Position numbers and translations under genes: made by a program. Shown one piece after another: positions 27,473-49,114 of a stretch of 64,000 nucleotides of DNA. The stretch is from Deltaproteobacteria bacterium (GTDB lineage Bacteria > Desulfobacterota > Binatia > HRBIN30 > CADEER01). Numbering within the stretch: the first letter of the stretch is position 1; the number at the start of each line of letters is the position of its first letter. The stretch spans positions 325,078 to 389,077 of the forward strand of contig JAJCZJ010000020.1 in assembly GCA_029262455.1 (NCBI GenBank), given 5' to 3'. Below the pieces are notes generated by a model, which did no database searches, was not told where the DNA came from, and saw only the letters and a list, made by a program, of their open reading frames with translations.

Positions 27473-27497
27473 CTGCGGTTCAAATCCCTTGCTCGGC

Positions 27498-28907: not shown

Positions 28908-29405
28908 GTTTTCGGCGCCGGATTGAAGTGCGAAAACACATAGCGGCCGGAGAGGCAGATGTCAGCGACCGAGGACATCGGGGGTAGTGGGTCACTTTGA
29001 TCCTGAGCTCGGCGCAACCGGAGCGAAGTTGGGAGGGCACGGCACCGCCGAGCCTTTCCGGGGTGGAGTCTTGTCACAGCTACCACCCGCAGGAGCTATG
29101 CGCGGCTCGGCGGCGCCGCGCCCTCCCGGGACCCGGCTGCTCCCGTCCGCTTCGATCAAACCGACCCACCACCGGACATCGAACGCGGTACGCGTATTCT
29201 CCCTCGAAGGCCCGTTCCAAGGCGGCCTCATTCACACCCCGGTCGTAACGCAGCAAGGAGCCGTCTGCATACGCGCGCTGCGCTGTTTCCGGGTCTATGG
29301 AAATGCCACTCCGTTCCGCATTCATTTCCGTCATTTGCAGTTTCCGACACAAACCAATCCGCCCTCTTGCGGAGCCACCCAGGTCGCGCCAGGATCGCAT
29401 CCCTT

Positions 29406-30590
29406 ATGCCGAAAGAAGAGATCGAGGTCGAGGTTCGGGTTCGGCTGCGCGGAGGGCATTCCTACGATCTCACCCTATCATCCAACTCCGCTCTTCTGCG
29501 CGACTTGATCACGACGCTCGGCGGGTCGAGAAACTCGGTCCAGCCCCGACTCTTCCAGCTACCCCTCGACGGCGGCCAAACCTCCGCAACATTCGCCAGC
29601 GATCAGATATCAGCGATCGACACCCGTCCGCCACTCGACTGGAACACCATCACAACTGGTACGGAAGAGCGGTCCGCAAAAAGCCTCGGCGATGGTCCGC
29701 CTCTCGTCCTACGCGGCGCCCGCAACATTACACGCCAGCCATCCTACGAGGCAGCAGAGCGACGAGCGCGGCGGCTGATGGAACCGTTCGTGGCGCATCG
29801 ACAAGCCCGCCGTGCCGCACTGAAGAGCACTTGCGACGAGCTCGGCGGAAACACCTTCGTCGTCTCCCCCTTCAACCAAGGCTTCGTCCCGCTACTGCGC
29901 AACTGGGCCGCATCCTGTGATCGTTCCGGCATCGACTGCCGCGCCAGGACGGTACTGTTTCCGACCGACAACGGCGCCGACACTGCAGCACGCGAGCTCG
30001 GATTCGCAACCCTCTTCGACGGCGTCTCGTTTGACGGTGCCCCGCGCGACGCTATCAAAGTCTACGGGGACGCCCACTTTGCCGATTGTGTCTTCGCCAA
30101 GCTCGGCGCAGCAATCGACATGCTCGCTCTCGGCTACGACATCCTACTCCAGGATATGGATCTCGTCTGGTTCAAAGACCCGCTCCCCGGACTCAAAACT
30201 CGAGCGATGGCCGACGATCTGGACTTACAGTTCATGCGCGACATGAATCCGCGCTTCCAGCCGCTGTACTACAACTCCGGCTTCGTATTTATGCGCAACA
30301 ACGAATTCACCCGCCAAACCTGGAACACCATCTTCGACGCCTTTGCGGCGGTCGTGTTCTACCGCTCCGATCAAACCGTCGTGAACCAGGTCGTCGACTG
30401 CTACAAAGAGCGAGGATTGCGAGCCGCCCGTCTTCCAGATCGCTACGTAGATGGACAACTGCTGATCCGGGCCCAAACAAAACGCCGGCCTCTACCGCCA
30501 GATTCGATCGTGGCTCACGTCAACTGGACCGGAAACCTTGCCGAGAAGATCGCTCGGCTCAAAGCACTCGAACTGTGGTTCATCGACTGA
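29406..30590 (+). CDS. Unassigned N-terminal ~75-aa domain fused to a GT77/PF03407-like nucleotide-diphospho-sugar transferase
   Basis: ORF 29367..30590, ATG 29406. ILLQDMDLVWFKDPLPGL (DxD) and PLYYNSGFVFMRN are typical of Nucleotid_trans/GT77. N-terminus is described in the findings. Confidence 0.65.
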   Translation: MPKEEIEVEVRVRLRGGHSYDLTLSSNSALLRDLITTLGGSRNSVQPRLFQLPLDGGQTSATFASDQISAIDTRPPLDWNTITTGTEERSAKSLGDGPPLVLRGARNITRQPSYEAAERRARRLMEPFVAHRQARRAALKSTCDELGGNTFVVSPFNQGFVPLLRNWAASCDRSGIDCRARTVLFPTDNGADTAARELGFATLFDGVSFDGAPRDAIKVYGDAHFADCVFAKLGAAIDMLALGYDILLQDMDLVWFKDPLPGLKTRAMADDLDLQFMRDMNPRFQPLYYNSGFVFMRNNEFTRQTWNTIFDAFAAVVFYRSDQTVVNQVVDCYKERGLRAARLPDRYVDGQLLIRAQTKRRPLPPDSIVAHVNWTGNLAEKIARLKALELWFID

Positions 30591-30673
30591 TCGATGCAAA
30601 TCACTTGCCGTGTCACAAGTTTTCCCCTTTTAAGCTTGACAGGAAGTCAGCGAACGTCGAGACTGCCTCCCGG

Positions 30674-31962: not shown

Positions 31963-32469
31963 ATGAGCGACTCCAAAAAGACAAGAAAGCAGCTAATCGA
32001 AGAACTCGAACAACTTCGTGGTCAAGTCGCGCAGCGACAGCAGTCGCAGTCGGACAACAGTGCACCGGCGCTTGCCGGCGACGTTTCACGACGCACCGCG
32101 CTAAAGGTCGCCTGGACCGCGCCGGTCATTTTGGCAATCCCTCTCCAGGCCGATCGCTCTGGCGCCCAACCTCCGGTCGGAACGGTGGCCCCGGGCTGTC
32201 CCACCATGACCCCGACCAACGCGGCCCCTCCGACTAGCTCGCCGACCTTGTTCCCAACGACCGCTGAGCCGACGATTTCGCCGACTCAACCAGTCCCGAC
32301 CACCAGGTTGCCAACGTCCAGTCCCACGAACGACCCGACATTGCGTCCGACCACCAGCCCGACGATCCCTGCCCCGACGGCTATGCCGACGGCGAGGCCG
32401 ACCACCAGCCCGACGATCCCTGCTCCGACGCTTTCCCCGACCCCTGGTTTCCCGACGCTTTCCCCGTAA
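31963..32469 (+). CDS. Pro/Thr-rich small protein with a conserved N-terminal helix and an SRRTALK Tat-like motif; candidate substrate/precursor 1
   Basis: Inner part of ORF 31810..32469, ATG 31963 lies 20 nt after the upstream stop. MSDSKKTRKQLIEELEQLRGQV...DVSRRTALKVAWTAPVILAIPL, then about 90 aa with about 26 Pro, mostly as P-T. Paralog of 45413..45892. Confidence 0.7.
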   Translation: MSDSKKTRKQLIEELEQLRGQVAQRQQSQSDNSAPALAGDVSRRTALKVAWTAPVILAIPLQADRSGAQPPVGTVAPGCPTMTPTNAAPPTSSPTLFPTTAEPTISPTQPVPTTRLPTSSPTNDPTLRPTTSPTIPAPTAMPTARPTTSPTIPAPTLSPTPGFPTLSP

Positions 32470-32611: not shown

Positions 32612-33976
32612 ATGTCGTCAGGAAACAGCGTAGAAACGCCGCCTACCAACTCTGGAGACTCCCCACGAGCACGGGGTGCGGCGGCTCGGCGGGTACGTCC
32701 GCGGCAGCGGGGCGGGCTCGAGACTTTCGAAGTACACAACGAAATCGTCGTGCTTCCCGGCGAGGGGGACCGCGTTTACGCGCTGAACGAGTCCGGTAAG
32801 GAGATCTTCGGCCTCTGCGACGGTCGCCACACCCTAGAGGCAATGGTCGACCAACTGGCGTCGAGGTACGACGCGCCTGACGTCGCGATCATGGGCGACG
32901 TGTCCGCAGCGATATTCGACCTCCACGGCCTCGGGCTGGTCGATATTCCTCCACCGGCTGACGCAGCTGCATCGATCGAGCCGCAGACCTCGGTCAAGGC
33001 ACGACCCAACGTGCGTTTCGTCTTCGGCATAGAGGACGTGCCCTATTTCCACTGGCAGCTTGCCATCCTCTTCGAGTCGCTCGTCGGCCAATTGCCCGAC
33101 GGTTGGGACGTCACCGTCGTCGTTTGCAACGACGAAGCACCGATTTCCGACGAGCTCATGAAGATCGTTTCCGAGTACGGTGTTCGCATCATGACCGGCA
33201 CCAGTCTCGCCGATCGCCACAGTCTCGACTTCGCCGGCGGCGGTGATCGCTACGTTCCGATGAACCGAGTCGAAGCACTCAGCGTCATTCGGCAAATCGT
33301 CGAACCCGAAGACGTCGTTTGCCTTCTGGACACCGACGTCTTCCTGTACGGCAACCTTCAAGAACAACTCTTCCCGACCGGCAACGCAATGGCCCGCAAC
33401 TGGATCATCTCCGAAGATCGGTACTTCGCGTTCTCGACCAACAACGAACGAGGACTGTCGCTCCCGAAGCTGCTCGAAGCCCTGGGGTGCGAGCAGGAGT
33501 TCAAACCCGGTGGCGTAGCGGTCTTCTTGACGGGAGAGACGATCCAACGCGAGCGCGTCATCCCCGACATTTTCCGTTTCCTTCAGGTTCTGTTCCTGCT
33601 CGGGAAAATCGTCGACGCACCAGCGCACGGCGTTTGGGTCGCCGAAATGGCATGCTTCGCAATGGCCATGTACCCCAACGAAATCGACTACGAGCTTCTC
33701 GACATCCCGCAATTCGCCGTCCAGGAGCAGCATGCTGAAGTCGCCCCCGACGGTTCGTTCTTCCACTACTACACCGACATCAACGACGGCGGGGGATCAA
33801 ATGGTCCGTTTTTCGAATCGCAGTGGCATAAACAGTTATTTCACCAGTCCAACATGCTCCTCGAAGACTTCGACAGCTTCAGAGTGAACGCCAAAGGCCG
33901 CCTCGAGCAGCGCTTCTTCGAAATCGCCGACAAGGCGAGAAAGCGCCTTTACGGCATCGAACGCACGGGCAAGTAG
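32612..33976 (+). CDS. PqqD-like domain fused to a GT95/GT96-like (HPAT / peptidyl-Ser galactosyltransferase-like) glycosyltransferase
   Basis: PqqD-like VYALNESGKEIFGLCDGRHTLEAMVDQLASRYD...AIFDLHGLGLV. GT part: FVFGIEDVPYFHWQLAILFESL, VVCLLDTDVFLYG, VWVAEMACFAMAMY. Confidence 0.6.
   Translation: MSSGNSVETPPTNSGDSPRARGAAARRVRPRQRGGLETFEVHNEIVVLPGEGDRVYALNESGKEIFGLCDGRHTLEAMVDQLASRYDAPDVAIMGDVSAAIFDLHGLGLVDIPPPADAAASIEPQTSVKARPNVRFVFGIEDVPYFHWQLAILFESLVGQLPDGWDVTVVVCNDEAPISDELMKIVSEYGVRIMTGTSLADRHSLDFAGGGDRYVPMNRVEALSVIRQIVEPEDVVCLLDTDVFLYGNLQEQLFPTGNAMARNWIISEDRYFAFSTNNERGLSLPKLLEALGCEQEFKPGGVAVFLTGETIQRERVIPDIFRFLQVLFLLGKIVDAPAHGVWVAEMACFAMAMYPNEIDYELLDIPQFAVQEQHAEVAPDGSFFHYYTDINDGGGSNGPFFESQWHKQLFHQSNMLLEDFDSFRVNAKGRLEQRFFEIADKARKRLYGIERTGK
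32717..32947 (+). other. PqqD-like (RRE-type) domain, copy 1, N-terminal
   Basis: aa 36-112 of ORF 32612; pattern L.LN..g..IW.LCDG..T..EI...L matches PF05402 by eye. Confidence 0.6.
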
Positions 33977-33980
33977 AGCC

Positions 33981-34598
33981 GTGTTGTCAATGTTCGATAC
34001 GCCCGCACACCTCGAGCAGCAGACGCGCGAGCAACAGGCCGCAGCCCGGTACTGCGGGCTCGGCTTCAAAAAGGCCACGCTGCCCTCCGAGGTCTTGCAA
34101 CGGTTGCGCCAACACCTGGAAACGAACAGCCGCCGATTCCGCGCCGAGGAGCCCATCGACTACCTCGTCAACCCGGACCCCGGGAAGATTCCGGCCCTTT
34201 ATTTCGAGGACAAAGAATTCAACGCCACCCTAAGTCGCGAGCTACAAGGATTGCACGAAGAGTGGGCCGGAAGGAGTCTGACCGAGTCCGCCTGCTACGG
34301 CATCCGCGTCTATCAACGCGGCAGCTTTCTCTACAACCACGTCGACCACACCGACACACACATCATCAGCTCTTCGATCTGCGTCGACCACCGCCTCGAC
34401 AAGCCGTGGCCCCTCTACGTCGAGGATATCGACGGCAATCCCCACCAGATCGATCTCGACCCTGGCGACATACTGTTCTACGAGGGAGCCCGCCTGCGAC
34501 ACGGCCGTGCCTATCCACTCGAGGGTGACTACTACGCATCCATTTTCGTCCACTATCGACCCGCAAATCTCTGGTCTTCGCGGCTCGTTGGCACCTAG
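33981..34598 (+). CDS. 2OG-Fe(II) oxygenase, prolyl 4-hydroxylase-like
   Basis: YGIRVYQRGSFLYNHVDHTD (HxD) and distal GDILFYEGARLRHGRAYPLEGDYYASIFVHYRP. Lies 4 nt after the upstream stop. Confidence 0.7.
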   Translation: MLSMFDTPAHLEQQTREQQAAARYCGLGFKKATLPSEVLQRLRQHLETNSRRFRAEEPIDYLVNPDPGKIPALYFEDKEFNATLSRELQGLHEEWAGRSLTESACYGIRVYQRGSFLYNHVDHTDTHIISSSICVDHRLDKPWPLYVEDIDGNPHQIDLDPGDILFYEGARLRHGRAYPLEGDYYASIFVHYRPANLWSSRLVGT

Positions 34599-34640: not shown

Positions 34641-36644
34641 GTGAGACATCTACTCTATACAAACTACCAGTCCGGTCAGTCGGGTTTGAGCAACGGCATC
34701 ATGTCGATCGAGCTGGGCGTGGTCCTCGCGTTCCTGACGAATCGGTTTCTCCTGCTCGATGGCAACATCTCCCCGCCGGCCAATATCGTGTCGTACGGCG
34801 ATCGAGTCGACAACAGCCAGCCGAGCCGCGTCACCGACCTGATCGACCTACCGGTCGCCTGGAGTGAGCCAGGAAGCGTCGACGTGTCCAAGTTGCCGTT
34901 CCTCGAATTGAGCGACGACCATCTGGGGAGTGCCGCGTTCTATGTCCCCGGCACCGTCGACATCCGATCCGCCGACGCGGAAGCGTTCGCCAACGGCAGG
35001 ACAGTGTGGCTCAACGCTGGCGGCTCGCTCGACGAGATCCCGGTGCTGCGAGTGTCCGAGGATCACAGCAAAGACAATCTTCGATACAATCTCAACTACT
35101 ACTCGTACTTCTTCTACCTCGACGACGAAACGCGTCGCTCCGTCTACCGCATGCTCGAGCGGATGCAACCAAAGCAGGACCTAGGGGAGCTGGCGAAGCG
35201 CGTCGCCGGCGATCTCGGAGCATTCAACGCGGTGCACTTGCGACGCGGTGACTTCAAGGTGACCTATGGAGTCACCACCCTCGACCGTCAACCTTGGGAA
35301 GCAATCGAGGCGCTCGAGCATCACTTCAAACGCGACGACACTCTGGTCTTCGTGACCGACGAGCGCGACGACCCGTTCTTCGACGAGATCAAGAAGGTCT
35401 ATACGCATCACGTATTCATCGATCACCACATCCTCGACGACTACGAGAAGGACTTCGCCGCATTGCAGCACCGCGACAGCATCGCCTTGGCCTATCTTTC
35501 CCAGCTCGTGGCGGCCGAATCCGCCGACTTCATTGGCACCATGACCAGCACGTTCACCGCCATCATCCAGCGCTACCGCGGCAATCGCGGCAAGGCCGAG
35601 AGTTTCAAGTACCTTTGGAACGAGCTCCCGGACGACGGCGATCGTCTCGAACGCGGCCGTCATCCGGTTAGTGAGTGCGTCCCGATGGACCGCGGCATGA
35701 TGGTCGAAGAGTCGTCGGGTCCGTACTCATGGAATCGCTACAACAAGAGGATCGCCGCCAACTGGATGCGCGAATGGCCCGAAAGTTTTCTGACCCAAGA
35801 GAGCCTCGAAACCGGCAAATTGACGACCGGGGCCAGCCCCGTTGCCCGCCCCATCGTTCTGGTTCGTCCCGAAAGGACGAAAGTCGAGGTCGCGTTCGAC
35901 GGCTTGAGCATCATTCTAAACTCGCAAGTGCCTCGCGTTGCGACCAAGCTGAGCGAAGCCTTCGAATCACGCCAAGCTGCGAGTCCAGCGAACGTCATCG
36001 GGGAGTTCGAGGTTGCTGAAGAAGACGGCGACTTCCGTCTTCTGCAACGCGGCCAGGAAATCGCCACCGCAGCAAGCTACGAGGAGTTGGCGCGCACGTT
36101 AAAACTCCGCATGGTGCCGATCTTTGTCGGTGCGCGCCGCCGGCACGTGTGGCTGGAAGCTTTTTCCTTCCGTAGAGCAGGCCATGCGCTGGTTCTCGCC
36201 GGCGACATGGGTCCTCCATCGGACTGGCTGCCGGACGCCATGTGCTCGAACGGCTGGGAGCTGCTGTGGGACGAGATCGTCCCGATCCGCCTGGAAGACT
36301 GTACCGTCACACCGTTCGGCCGCACGACCTGGCCGAAGGGCGCAGCCCTGCGCATCGACCGTACGCCCTGTCGCGTCAGCGGCCTGATCGTCACCAGCCG
36401 ACAAGTCCAGCGCCGCGACACCTTGACCGTCTTGTCCCCAGCCACCGGGGTGGCGGAGTTGATCGGCCGCTGCGTCGACTTCCGCACCGACCGCAAGCGG
36501 GCGGTAGAACGCCTGTGCAAGCTGGTCGAGAAACGAACCGTAGGCAGACTGTCCTTCAGCCGCGCCGAGACCGCTGTCGATCTCCTCACGCGCCCCTTCC
36601 TCGACGCGGAGCGTGAGTCCGCCCACGGTACAAAGTCTGCATGA
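34641..36644 (+). CDS. O-fucosyltransferase-like (PF10250-type) GT domain fused to an HprK-related-kinase-like domain with a degenerate P-loop
   Basis: GLSNGIMSIELGVVLAFLTNRFLLL, FNAVHLRRGDF, ADFIGTMTSTFTAIIQRYRG. C-terminal half: VEVAFDGLSIILNS...HVWLEAFSFRRAGHALVLAGDMGPPSDWLPDAMCSNGWELLWDEIVPI. Confidence 0.55.
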   Translation: MRHLLYTNYQSGQSGLSNGIMSIELGVVLAFLTNRFLLLDGNISPPANIVSYGDRVDNSQPSRVTDLIDLPVAWSEPGSVDVSKLPFLELSDDHLGSAAFYVPGTVDIRSADAEAFANGRTVWLNAGGSLDEIPVLRVSEDHSKDNLRYNLNYYSYFFYLDDETRRSVYRMLERMQPKQDLGELAKRVAGDLGAFNAVHLRRGDFKVTYGVTTLDRQPWEAIEALEHHFKRDDTLVFVTDERDDPFFDEIKKVYTHHVFIDHHILDDYEKDFAALQHRDSIALAYLSQLVAAESADFIGTMTSTFTAIIQRYRGNRGKAESFKYLWNELPDDGDRLERGRHPVSECVPMDRGMMVEESSGPYSWNRYNKRIAANWMREWPESFLTQESLETGKLTTGASPVARPIVLVRPERTKVEVAFDGLSIILNSQVPRVATKLSEAFESRQAASPANVIGEFEVAEEDGDFRLLQRGQEIATAASYEELARTLKLRMVPIFVGARRRHVWLEAFSFRRAGHALVLAGDMGPPSDWLPDAMCSNGWELLWDEIVPIRLEDCTVTPFGRTTWPKGAALRIDRTPCRVSGLIVTSRQVQRRDTLTVLSPATGVAELIGRCVDFRTDRKRAVERLCKLVEKRTVGRLSFSRAETAVDLLTRPFLDAERESAHGTKSA

Positions 36645-37630
36645 CAGACCAAGCAACCGCACCGCGCCAGATCGACATCCGCATCTCCACCATCGGCGGG
36701 CACGAGTATCGGTTGAATCTCCGCGAAGACGCCGTCCATTTGCGCGACCTCTTTACTCGATTCGTCAACCGACCGGCGACTGGGGCTGTCCGAGCTCCTG
36801 AATTCATCCAACTGCCCCTCGACGGAGGCAACGCTTCCTGCACGATCGCCGTCGATCAGATTGTGTCGATCGTCACCACGCCACCAGTCGTCATCGAAGT
36901 GCAACAACCCGCCGTCGAGCCAAACGTAATTCCAGATGTGCCGGCAGTGGTCGCGCCACCCCAGATCCGGCGCGCACACTACACGGTGATCGACGACTTT
37001 CTCACCGTCGATGAGCACCGAGACATGCTGGCGTTGGCATTGAGCGAGAAGGACAGCTTCGAACCCGGTACGGTGCAGGGTGAACCGAGTCCACACCGAC
37101 GAAACAGCGTCATCATGAACTTCGCAGACTCGGCGCACGGAACACTGCTGACAAGTCGTCTGCTCGTTTGGTTTCCATTGATCGCAAAGGCGCTGAAGGA
37201 ACCACTGTTTCCGCTCAAGACGGTCGAGTCGCAACTGACCGCCGCCAACGACGGAGACTACTATAAGCCTCACCTCGATACCGACGGGAAGACCCCCGAT
37301 TTCCGGGTCATCGCGTGCGTCTACTATTTCTTCCGCGAGCCAAAAGGGTTCACGGGCGGCGACCTACGCCTCTATGATTCCATCGAAACAGGTGGCGAAA
37401 TCTGTCAGGCGGATTCCTTCCAAGACATTCGGCCGGCAAGCAATCGCTTGGTCGCATTCACCTGCGAGACCTTCCACGAGCTGCTCGCGACTCGCTGCCC
37501 GTCCAAGGATATCGAAGACAGTCGTTTTGCGGTGACCGCGTGGTTTCACCGCAGCGGCGCACCGGACCCCGACGCCAAGTTCGGTTGGGGACATTATCGT
37601 TGCGGCGAAGTTCCGGAGGCACTGCGGTGA
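36641..37630 (+). CDS. Unassigned N-terminal ~80-aa domain fused to a 2OG-Fe(II) oxygenase (PF13640-like)
   Basis: ATGA overlap with the upstream stop. YYKPHLDTDG (HxD), GGDLRLYD, NRLVAFTCETFHEL, RFAVTAWFH. Confidence 0.7.
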   Translation: MTDQATAPRQIDIRISTIGGHEYRLNLREDAVHLRDLFTRFVNRPATGAVRAPEFIQLPLDGGNASCTIAVDQIVSIVTTPPVVIEVQQPAVEPNVIPDVPAVVAPPQIRRAHYTVIDDFLTVDEHRDMLALALSEKDSFEPGTVQGEPSPHRRNSVIMNFADSAHGTLLTSRLLVWFPLIAKALKEPLFPLKTVESQLTAANDGDYYKPHLDTDGKTPDFRVIACVYYFFREPKGFTGGDLRLYDSIETGGEICQADSFQDIRPASNRLVAFTCETFHELLATRCPSKDIEDSRFAVTAWFHRSGAPDPDAKFGWGHYRCGEVPEALR

Positions 37631-37802: not shown

Positions 37803-38930
37803 ATGATCTTCACGGTTTTCGTCGCACCGGTCGAACCAACGCAACAGTGGCGTGCCGATCTCCTCGAATACTCATGGCGACGCATCAAGCAGAGCGGCGA
37901 ACTGATCCGGCTGGCGCCAACCGCCCCCGGACGCGCACCAGGTAGCAGAGGGAGAGTCGGGAGAACCGTCAAAACGTTCGACTGGAACCCCCACCCGTAC
38001 ACCCAGGACGTGTACGCCGGCTATCAGACAACCGCCGGCGTACTCGAGTGGTTGTTCAACGAGCCGGCCGAAGGAACAGTCCTTTTGCTGGATTCGAGCT
38101 GCATCCTACGCCACCCGGTTACAGCAGAGGTCGAACCAGGCCACGTGCGCGGGTCGTCGTGGCCGGAGATCCCACTTGGCACGGACGGCCCATTCGGCCT
38201 GCATGATGATCTGAAGTTTCTCGAATCCTATTGCGTCAACCGCAAGCTCCCCCTCGCTCCCGTGCGGATGCCGATTTTGATCCACACGGCGGACCTGCGA
38301 AAAATCGCGGCGCGCTGGCTCGAGCTTACGGCGTTGATTCGATCCCATGCCGTAGGCGTTCACGGAAAATACCTTCATGCAGATCGCGTCGCCTACACCG
38401 TCGCCGCCGCCGAATACCGCATCCTCCACACCCTTGACGACCTCGGCACTACGACGTCGGATACCGGCAAAGACGTTCCGATCGTCGACTACAGCACACC
38501 GATCAAGTCCAAACAGGGAGAGATCGTCTGGGACCGAAAGGTCTATCGACCATGGGAGGCAGTCTACACCGAAAATGCGCGCGCAGGCGCAGGCAGAGAC
38601 GTACTCGGGATCCTGAACGAGATGGTGACGCGCCGCGAATCGGGAGCCGAGCTTGCGGCAACACGTCCACAGCGGTGCTACGGGGTGCGGGAAGCACGAA
38701 TTCTCGACGACATTCATCTCGAAGTACCTGGGTGTGCCGACTTGATGTCGCTGAATCAATCCGCGGCTGCCATCTGGGAGCTGTGCAACGGCGAGAACAC
38801 ACTCGCCGAGATCGTCAGCGAGCTCGAGAGACAATTCGACGCGTCACGCGAAACCCTCATGACATCCGTCGAATCGACGGCGAGGGATTTGGAAAGCTCA
38901 GGTGCCATCGAGCTGGAGGAGCTGTTCTGA
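37803..38930 (+). CDS. GT95/GT96-like glycosyltransferase fused to a C-terminal PqqD-like domain
   Basis: IFTVFVAPVEPTQQWRADLLEYSWRRIKQSGELIRL, AGVLEWLFNEPAEGTVLLLDSSCILRHPV, ILIHTADLRKIAARWLELT, ADRVAYTVAAAEYRILH. C-terminus: LMSLNQSAAAIWELCNGENTLAEIVSELERQFD. Confidence 0.6.
   Translation: MIFTVFVAPVEPTQQWRADLLEYSWRRIKQSGELIRLAPTAPGRAPGSRGRVGRTVKTFDWNPHPYTQDVYAGYQTTAGVLEWLFNEPAEGTVLLLDSSCILRHPVTAEVEPGHVRGSSWPEIPLGTDGPFGLHDDLKFLESYCVNRKLPLAPVRMPILIHTADLRKIAARWLELTALIRSHAVGVHGKYLHADRVAYTVAAAEYRILHTLDDLGTTTSDTGKDVPIVDYSTPIKSKQGEIVWDRKVYRPWEAVYTENARAGAGRDVLGILNEMVTRRESGAELAATRPQRCYGVREARILDDIHLEVPGCADLMSLNQSAAAIWELCNGENTLAEIVSELERQFDASRETLMTSVESTARDLESSGAIELEELF
38679..38927 (+). other. PqqD-like domain, copy 2, C-terminal
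   Basis: Last ~82 aa of ORF 37803..38930. Confidence 0.6.
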
Positions 38931-40156
38931 TGGCATCCAAAGCAAAACCAAGCGCCAAAAAGTCCGTGCCGACCACAAAAACAAAGCACGCAGCAAAACG
39001 TGCCAAAGCCTCGGCCAAGAAAACAGCCAAAGCGCCGCCCGGAAAAGCCACGACAGCACGGGCGAAGAAGACCACCAAGACTCCGGCCTCCAAGAGCCCC
39101 AAAACCCGGACCCAAAGGACCCGGGCCCAAAAGCCCCGGGCCCGCAAAGCCGCGCTCAAAGTATCGCAAACGGTGTCGCCCAAAGGATCGCAAACGACTT
39201 CGAAGACGGAGCGAACGACCCCATCGCCTCGCGCAAAGTCGCGGCAGGCCACAAAACAACCCCAGATCTTCGTGTCGATCGCCTCCTACCGCGACCAGTT
39301 TCTTCACTTCACCATCGAGTCGGTGCTCAAACAGGCGACGTACCCAGAACGGTTGACCTTCGGCCTCTGCTGGCAAGCCGACGACACCGAGCAACTCGAT
39401 CAATACCTGCACGATCCGCGTTTCCGCATTCGCAAGTACCCGTACTACGCGAGCCTCGGCTACGGTTGGGCAAGAGCCGAGATCCAAAAACTATACGCCG
39501 GCGAAGAGTACCATCTACTGATCGATTCTCACACGTATCTCGCCAAGGGGTGGGACGAGAATCTGATCGCGCAACTCGAGAGCAAGCCGGGCGAGAAGCC
39601 GCTACTGACGACCAGCTCACCCCCTTTCACCTTCGACAATGACGGCAACGTCGTAATCCCGTGGCAAGGGACCGAACACGACGGCGTGCCGCTGATGAAG
39701 TGCGCACGAATCCAACCGGCAGGGTGGGTCGACATCCAGATGTCCAATGAGCGCAAGTCCACCAAACATCAAACCACCGGATTGGTGTGCTGTAACTTTG
39801 TCTTCACGCACGGGGCTTGGATCCGCGAAGTGCCCGAGGATCCGGCGATGATCAACGCCGGCCACGAGTCAGCCCTTTCGGTTCGTACCTTCACCCACGG
39901 ATACGACATCTACCTGCCCGACGAAATTCAAATCTGGCACCTCGACTACAACAACTACCCGAACGGTGAGCGCAACAAGGTATGGGAAGCAAAGTCCGAC
40001 AGTTGGCAGTCTGAGGGCACCGAGATCATGCTGCGGCGGCTGCAAGCGCTGTTCTACAACCGCGGCGACCGCGCCTCGCTCGGCCGCTACGGACTCGGTC
40101 GATCCCGCACCGTAGCCGACTGGGCGGAGATCACCGGACTCGACCTCAGTGACTGA
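38930..40156 (+). CDS. Lys/Ala/Thr/Pro-rich basic N-terminal extension (~111 aa) fused to a GT60 Gnt1-like (PF11397) glycosyltransferase
   Basis: Inner part of ORF 38552..40156. ATGA overlap with the upstream stop, GGAGGAG SD at 38915-38921. MASKAKPSAKKSVPTTKTKHAAKRAKASAKK..., then QIFVSIASYRDQFL, LLIDSHTY. Confidence 0.65.
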   Translation: MASKAKPSAKKSVPTTKTKHAAKRAKASAKKTAKAPPGKATTARAKKTTKTPASKSPKTRTQRTRAQKPRARKAALKVSQTVSPKGSQTTSKTERTTPSPRAKSRQATKQPQIFVSIASYRDQFLHFTIESVLKQATYPERLTFGLCWQADDTEQLDQYLHDPRFRIRKYPYYASLGYGWARAEIQKLYAGEEYHLLIDSHTYLAKGWDENLIAQLESKPGEKPLLTTSSPPFTFDNDGNVVIPWQGTEHDGVPLMKCARIQPAGWVDIQMSNERKSTKHQTTGLVCCNFVFTHGAWIREVPEDPAMINAGHESALSVRTFTHGYDIYLPDEIQIWHLDYNNYPNGERNKVWEAKSDSWQSEGTEIMLRRLQALFYNRGDRASLGRYGLGRSRTVADWAEITGLDLSD

Positions 40157-41942
40157 CGTCGACTCCGCACTACTGCCAATTCCCCAACCCGAGTGGCGTG
40201 CTTCTTTATCCGGCGACGGCGCGGCAGTTGATGTCCTGATTTTAAGCAAGGACCGCGCCTGCCAACTCGACGGACTGCTGCGCACGATGCGCGCGTTCCT
40301 GACCATCCCACACCGGAAATACGTACTGTACAAGACGTCTAATTTGGCGTTCGAGCGCGGCTACGACATGCTCCGCCGGTGGAATCCCGAGGTCGAGTTC
40401 ATCGACGAGGCGCAAACGTTTCGACAATGCTACCTCGACCTCGTGGCAAGGATCGCCGCCGGGCCTGGTCGCTACTGGATGCCGGTGATGGACGACATGA
40501 TCTTCACTCGCACGTTCACCGCACAGCCACTCATCGACCTCCTCGACACAGACGAGGACGTGCTGGCGATCTCTCTGCGCCTCGGCGAGAACATTACCTA
40601 TTGCTACACCCGAAACGCTCCAACCACACCTCCGGACTTCAGCAACGGACACCGTTGGGAATGGAGAACAGCCAGCCCAGGCTACTGGAACTATCCAATG
40701 TCCGTCGACGCCAACATCTACCGCACGGCGGAAATGGCCGAATACATCCCGACCCTCCAATTCGGCAAGGCTGAAGTCATCGAGGCACGCATGGCCGGGG
40801 TGCCCTTGAACCGCCCCCATATGCTGTGTGAACCGACCCCCAGCGTACTCAATCTCGCGATCAACCGCGTTCAACACACCTTCAAGAATCGGCACGGCAC
40901 AATCACGCCAGAAGCCCTGAACGGCGCTTTCCTCGCGGGTTTCGCGATGGATGTGCGCCCGTTGCTGGGTCGAACCTTCAACGCCTGTCACGTCGAGGTC
41001 GAGCTGTCCTTGGTCCCCGATGCGCGCGAGCGCCCCGGCGCAACGCCCCTCTCTTCGACCGGCTGGAAACCACAGCGAAACGGCGCCGTCGTCGTGACCG
41101 AGAGCCATGCTGTCGTGACGCTCAAGAGGAACGGAACGAAGCTCAAACTCAATCAGAGCGCCGAAGAGATCTGGAAACTGTGCGACGGAACACGAACGCC
41201 CGAGGACATCCAAAACGAGCTCGCGCAACATTTTGACGCAACCCCGCGCCAGCTTCACAGCGGCGTACGAAGCGCCCTGGCGAATTTCATCAATCACGGC
41301 CTTCTCCGTCAGGAACGCCCGGAAGGCGCATACCGCCGCATCGACCTGCGCCAGATTCCCTGCTTCGTGATCAATTGCGAAGCCGATGCTGAGAAGGACA
41401 CGTTGATGAAGCGTCAGCTCGCTGAGCTCGGGATACCGTACGAACGTGTACCCGGGATCGCCGCAAGCCCGGATTGGGTCGGCGTCGCGCTGTCGCACCT
41501 CAAAGTGCTTCGCCTGACCCGCTCGACGACACCCTTCCTGGTGCTCGAGGACGATTGCTTGTTCAACGACCGCTTCCAACCAGTGTGGCAAGTACCGGTC
41601 GAGGCCGACGCCCTGTATCTCGGCGTTTCCGAGTTCGGCCTCGAGACCCCCGGTCACTTCAGCTGGGGCCGCCGGCGCAAGAACCAATGGAGACCCTACG
41701 ACCGGTCCTTCCTCCGCATTTTCAACATGCTCGCACGCCATGCGGTCGTGTACCTTTCCAACGACTACTGCGAGCAAGTCATCCAATCGCAAATCGAAGC
41801 ACTGACGAATCGAAGTTTGCCGTACCCTGGGGACATCGGCTGCGCGATGCTGCAAGCATCGCACGTCGTCCTGACCCCGAACGAACCGATCTGCCGGCAA
41901 ACCGGTCGTGACTCGACCGTGCGTCCGTTGCCGGAGCTCTGA
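40149..41942 (+). CDS. Three-domain protein: GT-A-like domain, central PqqD-like domain, GT25-like domain
   Basis: VDVLILSKDRACQLDGLLRTM; central KLKLNQSAEEIWKLCDGTRTPEDIQNELAQHFD; C-terminal IPCFVINCEADAEKDTLMKRQLAELGIPYERVPGI...FLVLEDDC. Confidence 0.6.
   Translation: MTDVDSALLPIPQPEWRASLSGDGAAVDVLILSKDRACQLDGLLRTMRAFLTIPHRKYVLYKTSNLAFERGYDMLRRWNPEVEFIDEAQTFRQCYLDLVARIAAGPGRYWMPVMDDMIFTRTFTAQPLIDLLDTDEDVLAISLRLGENITYCYTRNAPTTPPDFSNGHRWEWRTASPGYWNYPMSVDANIYRTAEMAEYIPTLQFGKAEVIEARMAGVPLNRPHMLCEPTPSVLNLAINRVQHTFKNRHGTITPEALNGAFLAGFAMDVRPLLGRTFNACHVEVELSLVPDARERPGATPLSSTGWKPQRNGAVVVTESHAVVTLKRNGTKLKLNQSAEEIWKLCDGTRTPEDIQNELAQHFDATPRQLHSGVRSALANFINHGLLRQERPEGAYRRIDLRQIPCFVINCEADAEKDTLMKRQLAELGIPYERVPGIAASPDWVGVALSHLKVLRLTRSTTPFLVLEDDCLFNDRFQPVWQVPVEADALYLGVSEFGLETPGHFSWGRRRKNQWRPYDRSFLRIFNMLARHAVVYLSNDYCEQVIQSQIEALTNRSLPYPGDIGCAMLQASHVVLTPNEPICRQTGRDSTVRPLPEL
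41079..41315 (+). other. PqqD-like domain, copy 3, internal
   Basis: aa 311-389 of ORF 40149..41942. Confidence 0.6.
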
Positions 41943-41977: not shown

Positions 41978-44900
41978 GTGAAAAAGGGCACAATCCACGA
42001 TCTCTTCTCCCGCACCGCTTGCGTCGTGTCCGACAGGCACCGATTCATCTATTTGACGGCGCAAAACGCCACGTCTTCCCTGAAGGCCGAGCTGTCGAAC
42101 GAGCACTGCGGCGGCGTTGTCCTCGCCCGCGCACAGGTGGCTGATAAACTCTGGAACCAATACTTTACGTTCGCCTTCCTGCGCGACCCGCTGACGCGCT
42201 TTCTCTCCGCCTATCAGGAAGTGTCTCTGCACATGGAGCGTGACAAACTCGAACCGCGCCCTTTCGGCCGGATGCCCGACGGCCTCGATCGCTTTCAGGC
42301 ATTTCTCGCGGACGTCGAGCAGAACGGTCCGTGGAACGAGCACATTGCACTCCAGCTAGCCTTCGTCGAGCGCCGAAGAATCGACTTTTGGGGGCTCGTC
42401 GAAACGCTGCAAGACGACTTCCAACAAATCTACACCCGGCTGGGATTGGGGACCTGTCCCGTTCTGCCAAAACGCCGCTCTCGCAGCGGCCGTGAGGAAA
42501 AGGACGGCATCTCGCGCTTCGCCTTCCATCCGGAGGACCTCGATGCGACGACAATTGAGCGCATCTACGACCTCTACCGTGAGGACGTCTTGCTGATTCG
42601 AGCGGTTCGCCCCGACGCACCTGAAATGCAGCCGCACTCAACCCGTGCCGCACCGCCCCCCGGAATGGTGCAGGTGGCGATCGCCCTGGCCAACGGCGGC
42701 GAATACTCCCTCGAACTTCCGCCCGGCCAACCAGAGCTGGGCGCTCTGCAAGCTGTGGTATCACCACAACAATCCGATGGACGTTTTCTCGGCCCGCAAG
42801 TTCTGCAGGTTCCACTGCGTGGTGGCAATTCCGCGCTGACGTTTTCCACGCAGCACCTCGTTCGTCTCGAGCTACGCCCCCCCGACGCCCGAGAACTGCG
42901 CCGAATCGAGGCGCCGGCCACCGGCACGGGCAACTCCGGAGTGAATCTAATAAACGTCGGGAACAAGCGGCCGCCAACCGAGGACCCATCGAGCAATATC
43001 GACGAGGCGCATCTCGGTGGCTACATTCGTGCGGCCAATACACCGATTCTCCACAGCGCCGCAGGCCCACACGGGGACCGGGGAACCTGGAATCCGCTGC
43101 TGTGGCGTTGGGCAATCGAAGATCTCGACGTGCGATCAGTGATCGATATCGGATGCGGCGAGGGACACGCCGCCGGATTTTTCTCCGACGGCGGGTGTGA
43201 AGTGCTCGCGCTCGATGGCAGCCTTCAAGCGCGCTATTCCAGCGTTGTTCCAGATCGCCACGTCGTACACGACTTCGTCGAGGGACCTTTCGTCCCAGAG
43301 AAAAGCTTCGACATGGCCTGGACCTGCGAGTTCGTCGAACACGTCGAGGCGCGTTTTCTCCACAATTTCCTGGCTACGATCGCATCGAGCCGCAAGTACG
43401 TGATGATGACGTTCGCCAGCCCGACACAAACAGGCTGGCATCACGTCAATTGCCAAGAACAGGGTTACTGGGTCGATCAGTTGGGACGCCTCGGGTTTCG
43501 CCTGGACGACGATCTAACCGAGAGAGGCCGAGCCTTGGCTCACTCTCATTTTCGCGAACGTGGCCTGGTCTTCGTCCGGCACCATCGAAAAGGCGAGTCA
43601 TCGAAGTCCACAGAACCGTCGCTGCGCGCGACTGCCGAGAGTCACTGTCTCGACCCGCTGCCGGTCCAATCCATGCAGGTCGCACAGCGCGAGAGCGATG
43701 CCTTCTACCTGTTTGTCGACATCTTCGTGCATCCGACCGCACCGAGAATCGTGGCGATCTCACCACCCTATGGCGAAGACTGGAATCCTAACGTTGTCGG
43801 CATCGACTACGATGCCGTCGACCTTGTATTCGGTGACATACGCGTCCGCGGCCGCTGCCTGCGGCACCGTCTCGACTCCTGGGAGCCTTGCATGCTTCTC
43901 GAGTTCGAGGACGAAGACCTAACAGAGCGCATTCGGGCCAACGACGAGATCAACGTCACGATCGAGGCCGGCTCGCATTCGTCGTCCTTCGTCCTGACGA
44001 CCCGCCCAGCGCCAGCCTACGATGTCGCAATGAGCCTCGTCGTACGCAACGAAAACCGCTGGATCCGCACGTTTCTCGACTACTACCTCGACTGCGTCAA
44101 AGCCGACCACGTCTTCATCTACGACAACGGAACGTCGGAACAAGACCAGCTGCTTTCCATTCTTCACCCGTACCGAGAGCGCGGGCAAGTGACGTACATC
44201 CCGTGGGATTTTCGCTGGCGCAACCGCATCGACCGCAAGATGATCGGCCAACCGACACAGGAGGCTCACTCCCTTGCAAGATTCGCAAACACCGGGTGGA
44301 TCGGCTTTCTCGACATCGACGAGTTCCTGCGCTTGCCGCACAGCACCCTGCCACAATTTCTCGCTCGCTTCGCGTCCGCGGAGGTCGACGGACTCTCGTT
44401 CGGTATCCGGTGGTTTTCTTACGAGGGCCCGCTTGCACTCGATGAGATTACGAGTGTGCCACTGCAATTCCTCCACTCGCGCCGCAATGAGCTCGGCCGA
44501 AAACGGCAGAAGTTCTTCGTCAAAGGCGGCGGCTCGAAGTTTCTTCGCTTGCATTGGCTCGAAGACGGAGGTCGCGAACTGCCCATCGACGACACCGAGA
44601 TCTACTTTCACCACTACGATCAACGTCCCGGCCGTTTCGAAGAAGGAAAGCAAATCGGAGGAGCGCGCGACGAATACATGCTGCGCTTCGCCGACCAGCT
44701 CTCGCGCCCCGAGCGGCACAGAGCCCCTCTAACCGAGAGAGGATGGATCACCCACATCAACTCTTCGATCGAACGCGCCGAACGCGACACCTCCAAACTC
44801 ACCCCGGAAGTCCTCGCCGTCGACGGCATGTGCGGGCGCTACACCCGTCACTTCTACAACAACCTCTGCAGCTTCGGAGGATGCCGCTACCTCGAGATCG

Positions 44901-45385
44901 GCAGCTATCACGGGGCCAGCACCTGCGCGGCAATCTTCGGCAACGACGTATCCGCCGTGTGCATCGACAATTGGACACAGTTTCACGGCAAGCGAAGCCG
45001 CTTCGAGGATGCCCTACGACGCTTCCGAGGAGATCGCTCGGTCCGAGTCATCGAGCAAAACTGCTTCGAAGTAGACGCCTCAAGCCTCGGCCCATTCGAC
45101 ATCTATCTCTACGATGGCGACCACAGCCAGCAGAACCAGTACCGAGCCTTGCAGCACTTCGTTCAGACGCTGGCCAAGCTCGCCGTAGTCGTCATCGACG
45201 ACTGGAATCGTCGGCATATCCGTCGGGGGACACAGGACGCGATTCGGGACCTCGAACTCGATGTAATCTTCGACCGAGAGATCCTACTGCCAACCGACCA
45301 GACGGCGGATGAAAACCGTGACGCTGGAGCGCGAACTTGGTGGAACGGACTCTACATCATGCTCGTTCGCAGTAGAACGCAGTAG
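41978..45385 (+). CDS. 1135-aa five-module enzyme: sulfotransferase, shared ~75-aa domain, class I SAM-MTase, GT92/Glyco_tranf_2_4-like, second SAM-MTase (Methyltransf_24-like)
   Basis: FTFAFLRDPLTRFLSAY; MVQVAIALANGGEYSLELPP...LQVPLRGGNSALTF; VIDIGCGEGHAAGF; SLVVRNENRWIRTFLDYYL...FIYDNGTS...FLDIDEFL; YLEIGSYHGAST...IYLYDGDHS...VVIDDWN. GTG start has a weak SD. Confidence 0.65.
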   Translation: MKKGTIHDLFSRTACVVSDRHRFIYLTAQNATSSLKAELSNEHCGGVVLARAQVADKLWNQYFTFAFLRDPLTRFLSAYQEVSLHMERDKLEPRPFGRMPDGLDRFQAFLADVEQNGPWNEHIALQLAFVERRRIDFWGLVETLQDDFQQIYTRLGLGTCPVLPKRRSRSGREEKDGISRFAFHPEDLDATTIERIYDLYREDVLLIRAVRPDAPEMQPHSTRAAPPPGMVQVAIALANGGEYSLELPPGQPELGALQAVVSPQQSDGRFLGPQVLQVPLRGGNSALTFSTQHLVRLELRPPDARELRRIEAPATGTGNSGVNLINVGNKRPPTEDPSSNIDEAHLGGYIRAANTPILHSAAGPHGDRGTWNPLLWRWAIEDLDVRSVIDIGCGEGHAAGFFSDGGCEVLALDGSLQARYSSVVPDRHVVHDFVEGPFVPEKSFDMAWTCEFVEHVEARFLHNFLATIASSRKYVMMTFASPTQTGWHHVNCQEQGYWVDQLGRLGFRLDDDLTERGRALAHSHFRERGLVFVRHHRKGESSKSTEPSLRATAESHCLDPLPVQSMQVAQRESDAFYLFVDIFVHPTAPRIVAISPPYGEDWNPNVVGIDYDAVDLVFGDIRVRGRCLRHRLDSWEPCMLLEFEDEDLTERIRANDEINVTIEAGSHSSSFVLTTRPAPAYDVAMSLVVRNENRWIRTFLDYYLDCVKADHVFIYDNGTSEQDQLLSILHPYRERGQVTYIPWDFRWRNRIDRKMIGQPTQEAHSLARFANTGWIGFLDIDEFLRLPHSTLPQFLARFASAEVDGLSFGIRWFSYEGPLALDEITSVPLQFLHSRRNELGRKRQKFFVKGGGSKFLRLHWLEDGGRELPIDDTEIYFHHYDQRPGRFEEGKQIGGARDEYMLRFADQLSRPERHRAPLTERGWITHINSSIERAERDTSKLTPEVLAVDGMCGRYTRHFYNNLCSFGGCRYLEIGSYHGASTCAAIFGNDVSAVCIDNWTQFHGKRSRFEDALRRFRGDRSVRVIEQNCFEVDASSLGPFDIYLYDGDHSQQNQYRALQHFVQTLAKLAVVVIDDWNRRHIRRGTQDAIRDLELDVIFDREILLPTDQTADENRDAGARTWWNGLYIMLVRSRTQ

Positions 45386-45412: not shown

Positions 45413-45892
45413 TTACTCCTCGCCCTTGGTTTCTTTTCCCACGGGAGCCGGTCGGCCCTCGTCGTCATCCGAAGCAATGAGCTTTTTAGCACCGAAGCCA
45501 AAGAGCGCCGCTGCGGCCACAGCCGCGGCGCCGCCTGAAACCACAGGCGCATCGACTGCTGCCTGAAAGGCGGTCGGAACCGCCGTACTGGGAAGGCCCG
45601 GATCGAGGACCGTCGGGACCTGCGTCGGTGCGGCAGTAGGATTGAGGCAAAGTGACGGCGAATTGGTACATTGCGTCGTCCCAGCTTCGACAGGCGCGAC
45701 GAATCCAAGATCAGACGAGACCGGTACCGATAAGATCACCGGCGTTACCCAGGCAATCTTGAGCGCCGAGCGCCTTGAAATATCGTCGGAAAAAGTCGGC
45801 CGCGCCGCCTTCCCGTCCGTCACCAGCTCGCCCCGCAGCCGCTCGATCTCCTCGAGAAGCTCCTTTTTCGTCTTCGTTCCGTCACCCGCCAT
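45413..45892 (-). CDS. Pro/Thr-rich small protein, paralog of 31963..32469, with a C-terminal hydrophobic anchor and acidic tail; candidate substrate/precursor 2
   Basis: ORF 45413..45997 trimmed to ATG 45892, which has a GGAGAGGG SD upstream. MAGDGTKTKKELLEEIERLRGEL...DISRRSALKIAWVTPVILSVPV, P/T/S/A-rich middle, GGAAAVAAAALFGFGAKKLIASDDDEG. Confidence 0.65.
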   Translation of the reverse strand: MAGDGTKTKKELLEEIERLRGELVTDGKAARPTFSDDISRRSALKIAWVTPVILSVPVSSDLGFVAPVEAGTTQCTNSPSLCLNPTAAPTQVPTVLDPGLPSTAVPTAFQAAVDAPVVSGGAAAVAAAALFGFGAKKLIASDDDEGRPAPVGKETKGEE

Positions 45893-46744: not shown

Positions 46745-46759
46745 GGGGATTCTATGTGT

Positions 46760-46878: not shown

Positions 46879-46892
46879 GTTGGGCAAAAGTT

Positions 46893-48115: not shown

Positions 48116-49114
48116 TCAGACCTTGTGGGCGAGCCCCTTTTCCCGCGCCGTGTACTGATCGAAGATCCAGGCGTAGGTTTTCTCGATACCGTCGCGCAAT
48201 GAAGTAGACGGAGCCCAACCGAGCTTCTCAATGATCATCGTGTTGTCGCTGCTCCGCCCGTCGACACCCTTCGGAGCATCCAGTTTATAGGTTCGCTCGA
48301 GCCGAATTCCGGCAATCTCTTCGACGACATCGACCAGATCATTGATGGACACTGTCTCACTTGAGCCGAGATTGATCGGGTCCGAGACACTGCTCTCCAT
48401 CAGCCGACGAATTCCCTCGATGCAGTCATCGATGTACGTAAACGAGCGACCCTGGTTTCCATCGCCCCAGATTTCAATGCGATGATCGCCGCGGACTTTT
48501 GCTTCGATCACCTTTCGACAGATCGCCGCGGGTGCCTTCTCGCGACCACCGTCCCAGGTCCCATGAGGCCCATACACATTGTGGAAGCGAGCCACTCGCG
48601 TCCGCATCCCAAAGTCCTCCATGAAATGGCGGCACATACGCTCGGAGAACAGCTTCTCCCACCCGTACCCATCTTCCGGCATCGCCGGGTACACGTCGTC
48701 CTCTTTCAAGGGAGTGACATCATAGCCACGTTGCTTGTCCGCCCTGTATACGCATGCCGACGACGCGTAGAAAAAGCTCTCGGTGCCGCACACATTCGCA
48801 GCTTCCAACAGATGGGTATTGATCAAGACGTTGAGCATGCACAGAGCCTTGTTGCTCTCGATGAAGCCCATGCCGCCCATATCACAGGCCATCTGGTACA
48901 CGACTCCGACCCCCTCGCAGACATCCATGCACGGACTCCGCAACCGCAGATCCAGCTGCCGATTGTCGACGTCGTCGAAGCACTGGTACCACTCTTCGAT
49001 CGGTTTGAGATCGACCGCGCGTAGGTTGGGCTCACCACGCTGGCGCAAGTCGGCAACAATCTGCCCCCCGATAAACCCGCCCGCGCCTGTGACTAGAACA
49101 GTAGAAGCAACCAT
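48116..49114 (-). CDS. GDP-mannose 3,5-epimerase-like extended SDR
   Basis: VTGAGGFIGG, ACDMGGMGFI, FFYASSACVY, RFHNVYGPHGTWDGGREKAPAAICRK, EIWGDGNQGRSFTYIDDC, GVDGRSSDNTMIIEKLGWAP. Collinear with plant GME as I recall it. Confidence 0.8.
   Translation of the reverse strand: MVASTVLVTGAGGFIGGQIVADLRQRGEPNLRAVDLKPIEEWYQCFDDVDNRQLDLRLRSPCMDVCEGVGVVYQMACDMGGMGFIESNKALCMLNVLINTHLLEAANVCGTESFFYASSACVYRADKQRGYDVTPLKEDDVYPAMPEDGYGWEKLFSERMCRHFMEDFGMRTRVARFHNVYGPHGTWDGGREKAPAAICRKVIEAKVRGDHRIEIWGDGNQGRSFTYIDDCIEGIRRLMESSVSDPINLGSSETVSINDLVDVVEEIAGIRLERTYKLDAPKGVDGRSSDNTMIIEKLGWAPSTSLRDGIEKTYAWIFDQYTAREKGLAHKV

Follow-up and report, generated by a model that had tools for sequence, protein, structure and literature searches.

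A candidate bifunctional glycosyltransferase with a PqqD-like domain between two GT-A modules, encoded beside Pro/Thr-rich proteins with a conserved leader

The window analyzed here, a stretch of 64,000 nucleotides of contig JAJCZJ010000020.1 from a Deltaproteobacteria bacterium, contains a single open reading frame (ORF) in which three domains follow one another: an N-terminal GT-A fold, a PqqD domain of the kind known as a RiPP recognition element (RRE; RiPP, a peptide made on the ribosome and modified after translation), and a C-terminal GT25-like GT-A domain. We moderately favor the interpretation that this tri-domain protein is a soluble, cytoplasmic, bifunctional glycosyltransferase (GT) whose two independent GT-A modules flank the RRE, and which would extend glycans after the action of GT60a, a predicted N-acetylglucosamine (GlcNAc) transferase encoded directly upstream. 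This interpretation is supported by the intact acidic motifs of both modules, by the coupling to the GT60a gene, and by the co-inheritance of the enzyme with leader-bearing Pro/Thr-rich proteins. The identity of the sugars, the acceptor and the order of action are points that we infer.

According to the mechanism that we propose, the cluster encodes two Pro/Thr/Ser-rich proteins whose conserved N-terminal region would be bound by the RRE, and this tether would hold enzyme and substrate together during the processing of the long repetitive tail. Oxygenases dependent on 2-oxoglutarate (2OG) would form hydroxyproline (Hyp), the translationally coupled GT60a would place GlcNAc on Hyp or on Thr/Ser, and the two transferase domains of the tri-domain enzyme would add further sugars next, the GT25-like domain most likely a β-linked galactose (Gal) or glucose (Glc) from a UDP-sugar. 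Transferases of the O-fucosyltransferase-like (O-FucT-like), GT92 and GT77 types, together with sulfotransferases and methyltransferases, may then complete the glycan. The modified protein would finally be exported through a twin-arginine/hydrophobic block (block B) that follows the leader, with one product secreted and the other anchored in the membrane.

A single gene for three domains

The sequence-only reading of this DNA had described a single ORF with GT-A-like, PqqD-like and C-terminal modules, and all four peptide strings that it quoted are found in the translation of the ORF. This description is borne out by 12 full-length orthologues from independent assemblies (42-68% identity), which carry the same three domains in the same order (alignment A1). 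The closest of the homologues, at 68% identity, comes from a Candidatus Binatia metagenome-assembled genome (MAG), and the ALLPxP peptide that follows the GTG start is kept among the full-length orthologues. The same reading had warned that a frameshift might have turned two genes into one. A frameshift or misassembly joining two or three genes was checked and is ruled out, because the 12 continuous orthologues share the three blocks, their order and the N-terminal ALLPxP; furthermore, an identical protein (P0001) exists in NCBI and in an independently assembled Logan run, and homologues devoid of the RRE join the N domain straight to the C domain in frame. The probability that we leave to such an artefact is practically nil.

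The tri-domain protein family is rare, as a word-indexed search of 5.8 billion clusters returned 25 relatives, of which 12 are the full-length orthologues. The enzyme has no transmembrane segment, its maximum Kyte-Doolittle score over 19 residues being 1.04, and its GTG start lies within an 8-nt overlap with the TGA stop of the upstream GT60a gene. A sequence search of the full protein against the PDB gave nothing useful, and a profile search retrieved only PqqD proteins and R655.

Two GT-A modules

N-terminal domain: The presence of a GT-A-like module at the N-terminus was confirmed at the level of the fold, which is Rossmann-like and carries an acidic DxD-type motif after a hydrophobic strand (VMDDMIF, with D115-D116). 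No family match was obtained in Pfam and NCBIfam at E ≤ 1, and membership in a named family such as GT13 or GT2 was not found; since its identity to GnT-I is only 12-14%, the domain was assigned to no named family. It nevertheless belongs to a very large group of proteins: a search with the N-domain profile (A4) against 1.84 billion representatives retrieved 4317 clusters (50% identity level) at E ≤ 1e-3 and 1615 at E ≤ 1e-30, the majority of which are standalone proteins of ~265 aa. Six standalone relatives gave no Pfam match, and the sole name carried by the ten relatives that were looked up is “hypothetical protein.” Among 146 representatives of the family, D115, D116 and N239 are 100% conserved, while S33, R36, Q39, Y72, R144, W172, Y182, S185, D187, E212 and H281 exceed 90%, with D187, E212 and H281 at 93% or more. 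Such conservation is the pattern that would be expected of an active metal-dependent GT-A enzyme. Standalone members adjoin GT25, GT2 or GT4 genes, and in the 45 longest relatives the fusion partners are mainly other transferases, namely GT2 (23), GT92 (8), GT4 (5), GT25 (4) and GT6 (3), with methyltransferases and sulfotransferases as further partners. The family members carry the handles P0026-P0170, with loci L014, L015 and L016; in L014, a contig of seemingly phage or viral origin, a standalone member and a GT25 gene lie two genes apart.

These data bear on whether the enzyme adds two sugars or one. If the GT25-like C-domain were the only catalytic module, the N-domain would be a structural part or a donor-binding pseudo-transferase, and a single sugar would be added. 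Human ColGalT1 provides a precedent, as the N-terminal GT-A domain (GT1) of its GT-A plus GT25 tandem is structural and non-catalytic, and GT2, the GT25 domain, is the catalytic one (PMC12003778). The N and C domains are also always paired in this cluster family, and conservation alone is not decisive for the activity of the N-domain because the DxD of ColGalT1 GT1 is conserved even though that domain is structural. However, most relatives of the N-domain are standalone proteins, the domain is fused to many transferase families as an independent module would be, and these features, along with the near-invariant residues listed above, argue against a purely structural N-domain without proving its activity. 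We consider it unlikely that a single domain is catalytic.

C-terminal domain: The assignment of the C-terminal module to GT25 holds for the fold and the motifs and falls short in Pfam. Its GT-A fold is closest to those of solved GT25 enzymes, with ColGalT1 among the nearest, and both the GVALSH segment, corresponding to G-x-x-L-S-H, and the LEDD segment, which contains the metal-binding EDD motif (E467-D468-D469 in FLVLEDDC), are invariant among the orthologues. On PF01755, by contrast, the full protein scores 17.5 bits and the isolated domain 20.5 bits, below the curated cutoff of 24. Because all 22 relatives match PF01755 at E ≤ 0.01 (best 1.3e-7), we regard the domain as a divergent relative of GT25. 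The family profile additionally aligns G-x-A-L-S-H and L-V-L-E-D-D with their counterparts in R655. E467-D468-D469 also aligns with the EDD motif of ColGalT1 (E435/D437), which binds Mn2+ within the catalytic GT25 domain of that enzyme (PMC12003778).

The likeness to ColGalT1 also raises the question of which sugar is attached first. The GT25-like domain might start the chain by transferring Gal or Glc directly to Hyp (or Thr/Ser), with the N-domain extending it, in parallel to the GlcNAc chains initiated by GT60 enzymes. ColGalT1, one of the nearest solved enzymes, glycosylates a residue hydroxylated by a 2OG oxygenase, and the two oxygenase candidates and two GT60 enzymes of the cluster suggest several chain types. 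The tight and universal coupling to GT60a, on the other hand, fits better with action on the product of GT60a, and the bacterial GT25 enzymes LgtB and Lic2A extend sugars. Neither point is decisive; overall, we assign a rather low probability to chain initiation by the GT25-like domain and retain extension of a GT60a-initiated glycan as the preferred reading.

A proposed common leader for the recognition element

The PqqD-like assignment of the central domain proved correct: residues 330-386 score 43.7 bits on PF05402, above the cutoff of 23.4 (E = 3.6e-11), 16 of the 22 relatives also match this profile, and the domain has the winged-helix fold of a three-stranded sheet followed by three helices. 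Support from family profiles, the lack of which the sequence-only reading had named as a possible refutation, is divided, being present for the PqqD domain, sub-threshold for the GT25 domain and absent from Pfam and NCBIfam for the N-domain. The operon encodes three PqqD domains in total, which are paralogous at 28-38% identity and have the motif LN.S...IW.LC.G..T in common. Judging by sequence, this relationship fits the recognition of one common leader.

Leader-bearing genes that could encode the cognate substrates are found nearby, two in the window and five in other loci. In candidate substrate 1, the N-terminus MSDSKKTRKQLIEELEQLRGQ is followed by a variable linker and then by VSRRTALKVAWTAPVILAIPL; its leader comprises an N-terminal helical block A (KTRKQLIEELEQLR) and the twin-arginine/hydrophobic block B (SRRTALKVAWTAPVIL), and Pro makes up 28% of its 105-aa tail, Thr 25% and Ser 10%, the PT dipeptide occurring 20 times. 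In candidate substrate 2, a paralogue, the Pro/Thr region is shorter, and the protein also carries an acidic tail as well as a C-terminal hydrophobic anchor (AAAVAAAALFGFGAKK), which suggests that its product is a membrane-anchored glycoprotein; the precursor of locus L005 has a similar C-terminus. Genes of the same design lie beside the homologues in L002, L003, L005, L009 and L010, with a fragment in L012. Across seven precursor-like genes from six loci, the patterns KT[KR]K[EQ]L[IL].EL..LR and [ST][RK]R..L...W..PV[IV]L precede variable Pro/Thr-rich repeats, whose cores differ greatly (SPT, PTxSPT or PAPPT repeats). In motif scans, the leader blocks were detected only in loci that encode at least one PqqD protein, and neither the PqqD-free loci L004 and L008 nor unrelated loci contained them. 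The precursors belong to no Pfam or NCBIfam family. Taken together, the leader-carrying Pro/Thr-rich proteins are probable substrates.

The same data speak to a different role for the central domain, namely that of an interdomain winged-helix scaffold in an enzyme whose acceptor is a polysaccharide or lipo-oligosaccharide, with the Pro/Thr-rich genes being unrelated. Several orthologues lack the PqqD insert, the acceptor of classical GT25 enzymes is lipo-oligosaccharide, and the PqqD-type fold occurs in protein lysine methyltransferases as well. Yet the cluster retains the precursor-like gene and its conserved leader in MAGs whose labels span several phyla, and one operon holds three PqqD fusions; because of this leader and these fusions, we judge a scaffold-only role very improbable. 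In addition, the companions of the enzyme, the prolyl-4-hydroxylase-like (P4H-like) oxygenase and the PF11397 GlcNAc-transferase, are protein-directed, and the ORFs that were scanned, within the cluster and adjacent to it, showed no gene for a polysaccharide polymerase or for polysaccharide export.

Several observations weigh against a leader-docked bifunctional transferase. Besides the missed PF01755 threshold and the non-catalytic N-terminal domain of ColGalT1, the RRE is missing from the homologues in five loci (L004, L008, L009, L010 and L012, of which L004 and L008 carry the same sequence), where the N and C domains are still fused and a sulfotransferase megaprotein often follows. Docking through the PqqD domain is therefore not essential, and the RRE is accessory; perhaps RRE1 or RRE2, the other PqqD proteins of the operon, replace it in trans. 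With lengths of 160-340 aa, the candidate substrates do not resemble classical RiPP precursors, and the cluster showed neither a leader peptidase nor a dedicated exporter. Finally, block B resembles a twin-arginine (Tat) signal in its [ST]RRxxLK motif and hydrophobic stretch of ~15 residues, but Pfam TAT_signal matches none of six block-B segments, even at E ≤ 10; Tat export is thus hypothetical, motif resemblance being what is left to suggest it. The sequence-only reading had proposed that a bifunctional transferase adds two consecutive sugars while docked on the leader. That proposal survives in part: leader-bearing candidate substrates are encoded in the cluster, accompanied by three PqqD domains and both acidic motifs, whereas the PqqD domain is dispensable in several orthologues, and the substrates are long Pro/Thr-rich proteins rather than a short RiPP peptide.

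Gene neighborhood and its conservation

The tri-domain gene is part of a co-directional operon with tiny gaps or overlaps between genes, ordered as RRE1, a 205-aa protein, the O-FucT-like protein, the P4H-like oxygenase, RRE2, GT60a, the tri-domain gene and a 1135-aa protein. On the opposite strand after the operon lie the precursor paralogue, a sulfotransferase, a second PF11397 gene (GT60b) and a sugar-nucleotide epimerase-type member of the short-chain dehydrogenase/reductase (SDR) group. Coordinates are compiled in Table 1.

Table 1. Positions of the tri-domain gene, its domains and motifs, and neighboring features in the window
Feature	Position	Strand	Remarks
744-aa protein	5645-7879	+	
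876-aa protein	24941-27571	-	
MBOAT-family acyltransferase	27498-28907	-	
PF03407 nucleotide-diphospho-sugar transferase	29367..30590	+	Upstream of operon
Cys-rich protein	30086-31942	+	
Candidate substrate 1	31963..32469	+	168 aa; just upstream of RRE1
RRE1	32612..33976	+	N-terminal PqqD and ~340 aa without assigned function; L001 gene call starts at 32750
205-aa protein	33981..34598	+	
O-fucosyltransferase-like protein	34641..36644	+	PF10250 match, sub-threshold
Prolyl-4-hydroxylase-like 2OG-Fe(II) oxygenase	36641..37630	+	PF13640, E=3.9e-15
RRE2	37803..38930	+	~300 aa without assigned function and C-terminal PqqD
GT60a, PF11397 GlcNAc-transferase	38930..40156	+	Directly upstream of tri-domain gene; E=5e-44
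Tri-domain ORF	40149..41942	+	597 aa/codons; GTG start
N-terminal GT-A fold domain	40227..41018	+	~residues 27-290; large uncurated family
D115-D116, DxD-type acidic motif (VMDDMIF)	40491..40496	+	Invariant in A1, A2 and A4
PqqD/RiPP-recognition-element domain	41076..41318	+	~residues 310-390; three beta-strands, then three helices
C-terminal GT25-like GT-A domain	41340..41939	+	~residues 398-597
E467-D468-D469, EDD metal-binding motif (FLVLEDDC)	41547..41555	+	Invariant; GVALSH upstream
1135-aa sulfotransferase/methyltransferase/GT92/methyltransferase protein	41978..45385	+	Directly downstream of tri-domain gene
Candidate substrate 2 (paralogue)	45413..45892	-	159 aa; same two leader blocks
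Sulfotransferase	46049-46900	-	
GT60b, second PF11397 GlcNAc-transferase	46893-47900	-	
NAD-dependent sugar-nucleotide epimerase/dehydratase-type enzyme	48116..49114	-	
Shared QLPLDGG-signature module	36641-~36950, 29367-~29700, ~42590-42950	+	No Pfam match

Against the PDB, the P4H-like oxygenase matches 6t8m, a prolyl 4-hydroxylase alpha (E = 4.2e-5). The 205-aa protein gave no family match in the Pfam scan and an uninformative PDB search; it is likely a second 2OG oxygenase, a reading made because its L003 orthologue shows an HxD...H pattern, with no profile support. PDB searches were likewise uninformative for the non-PqqD parts of RRE1 and RRE2 and for GT60a. The true start of GT60a may be later than the one listed, since conservation begins only at around residue 100. 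Orthologues of GT60a and GT60b form two groups that are ~36% identical to each other and 57-82% identical within a group, and both are kept per cluster; this may point to two specificities in chain initiation, such as one for Hyp and one for Thr/Ser. The epimerase has weak NCBIfam matches to several SDR subfamilies, the best being GDP-fucose synthase with 113 bits versus a cutoff of 500, and the donor sugar is therefore not inferable from this enzyme. PF03407, the family of the protein upstream of the operon, is one that we take to be equivalent to CAZy GT77.

By tblastn, conservation of the gene set is complete in L002, L005, L006 and L009, whereas L010 and L012 keep part of it. A PF11397 gene is the constant upstream neighbor of the tri-domain homologue in every locus that reaches that far: a GT60a orthologue occupies this position in L002, L004, L005, L006, L008 and L009, and a gene closer to GT60b does so in L003. 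The MAGs that host these loci are labelled as Candidatus Binatia, Acidobacteria, Lysobacterales, Gammaproteobacteria, Myxococcota, Spirochaetaceae and Fibrobacterota. In other lineages, a megaprotein of the 1135-aa type is fused to the N+C unit.

Module shuffling is heavy in this group of proteins. P0026 (2030 aa) combines the N domain, GT25, sulfotransferase, FUT8-like, methyltransferase and GT92 modules, P0023 combines sulfotransferase, PqqD and GT25, and fusions of GT92 with the N domain also exist; the shuffled forms include P0026, P0011, P0013 and P0024 and loci L004, L009 and L010. On the opposite strand, loci L010 and L012 have a further GT25-like gene that stands alone. The sulfotransferase/GT92 megaprotein has a module of ~80-100 aa with the signature QLPLDGG[NQ].S.T[FI]...Q...I.T.PP in common with both the P4H-like oxygenase and the GT77-type protein; this module might be another docking domain, not of the PqqD type, that serves the same substrates.

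Other features around the cluster include the Cys-rich protein beside it, which has sub-threshold matches to disintegrin and to an acidic double-disulfide repeat; its L002 orthologue (L002 15-2432) contains a PTVTATPT linker of considerable length, and its N-terminus resembles a secretion signal. Upstream of the cluster are the MBOAT-family acyltransferase gene and that of the 876-aa protein, which has no Pfam match. The 744-aa protein carries a PTPTPTSTPTATPT linker.

Possible implications for bacterial protein glycosylation

Our full-text literature searches found no description of this cluster or system. The enzyme itself is an RRE-fused tailoring enzyme built from GT25-like and unnamed GT-A modules, and the surrounding cluster is the more novel of the two. 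We tentatively put forward, as a possibility that we find less than probable, that the cluster is a new bacterial protein-glycosylation system that combines RiPP-style leader recognition with a eukaryote-like O-glycosylation line and yields sulfated and methylated mucin- or extensin-like products. Recognition would be provided by the three PqqD domains and a possible second docking module, and the line would consist of the prolyl hydroxylase, the GT60, GT77-type, GT25-like, O-FucT-like and GT92 transferases, the sulfotransferases and the methyltransferases. Glycans would be built up in the cytoplasm on Pro/Thr-rich repeats, with the leader acting as the extended N-region of a twin-arginine export signal and the tri-domain enzyme serving as a processive, leader-tethered chain extender.

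If this were true, RiPP recognition elements would guide glycan assembly on whole proteins, beyond short peptides, and bacteria would perform hydroxyproline or mucin-type O-glycosylation with families best known from the Skp1, collagen, extensin and mucin pathways of eukaryotes, bearing on the origin of those pathways. The N-domain family, with more than 4,000 sequence clusters and no Pfam model, would gain its first functional context. The enzyme would also represent a compact, leader-addressable two-step glycosyltransferase of potential use in the glyco-engineering of leader-tagged peptides.

Comparison with known systems

Skp1 glycosylation: The closest functional analogue of the cluster is the Skp1 pathway of Dictyostelium and Toxoplasma, in which the prolyl hydroxylase PhyA is followed by Gnt1 (GT60), the bifunctional PgtA, whose domains are GT2 and GT74, and AgtA (GT77). 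Similarly, the cluster encodes a P4H-type oxygenase, a PF11397/GT60-type gene with the two-domain transferase directly after it, and a PF03407 (GT77-type) gene, and all the enzymes in both cases are soluble and cytoplasmic in type. PgtA differs from the tri-domain enzyme in that the latter combines an unnamed GT-A domain with a GT25-like one. Furthermore, the Skp1 pathway has neither an RRE nor a leader and modifies one proline of a folded protein instead of long Pro/Thr-rich repeats, whereas the cluster further encodes sulfotransferases and methyltransferases, along with GT92 and an O-FucT-like protein. Since the families of the bifunctional enzymes and the candidate substrate differ, the relationship is one of analogy and does not place the cluster among Skp1-type pathways.

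Collagen galactosylation: Human ColGalT1 (GLT25D1), which works with the lysyl hydroxylase LH3, resembles the tri-domain enzyme in its tandem of GT-A and GT25 domains, in its EDD metal motif, and in that a 2OG oxygenase hydroxylates the target residue beforehand. The two proteins share 18% identity; unlike the protein in the window, ColGalT1 has no inserted RRE, and the window protein lies below the Pfam GT25 cutoff. The N-domain of ColGalT1 is structural, while that of the tri-domain enzyme comes from a mostly standalone family, and the neighboring oxygenase is of the prolyl rather than the lysyl type.

RRE-dependent RiPP enzymes: Fusions of an RRE with a glycosyltransferase have recently been noted, for PF00535 (RRE-GT2) (PMC12710340). 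Like RRE-dependent enzymes, for example TfuB1 and TbiB1 of the lasso peptide B1 type, the tri-domain enzyme matches PqqD in profile and fold, is accompanied by a putative cognate gene in which a variable core follows a conserved N-terminal leader, and is one of several RRE enzymes in its operon. It differs in having its RRE between two glycosyltransferase domains and in its candidate substrates, which are repeat proteins of 160-340 aa with an export-signal-like block; the cluster also has no visible leader protease.

Serine-rich repeat adhesins: In Gram-positive bacteria, serine-rich repeat adhesins are glycosylated by cytoplasmic GtfA/B and then by the bifunctional dGT1, GalT and GlyE, before export through accessory Sec. 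The transferase families differ from those of the cluster, the export route is another one, and the adhesin systems have no RRE, prolyl hydroxylation or sulfation. The two designs nonetheless agree in that soluble lines of several transferases decorate long low-complexity repeats before export, that a two-domain bifunctional transferase takes part, and that the substrate has an unusually long N-terminal signal region. The fold matches of the tri-domain enzyme include CgT/GalT1 (5hea) and GlyE (5gvv).

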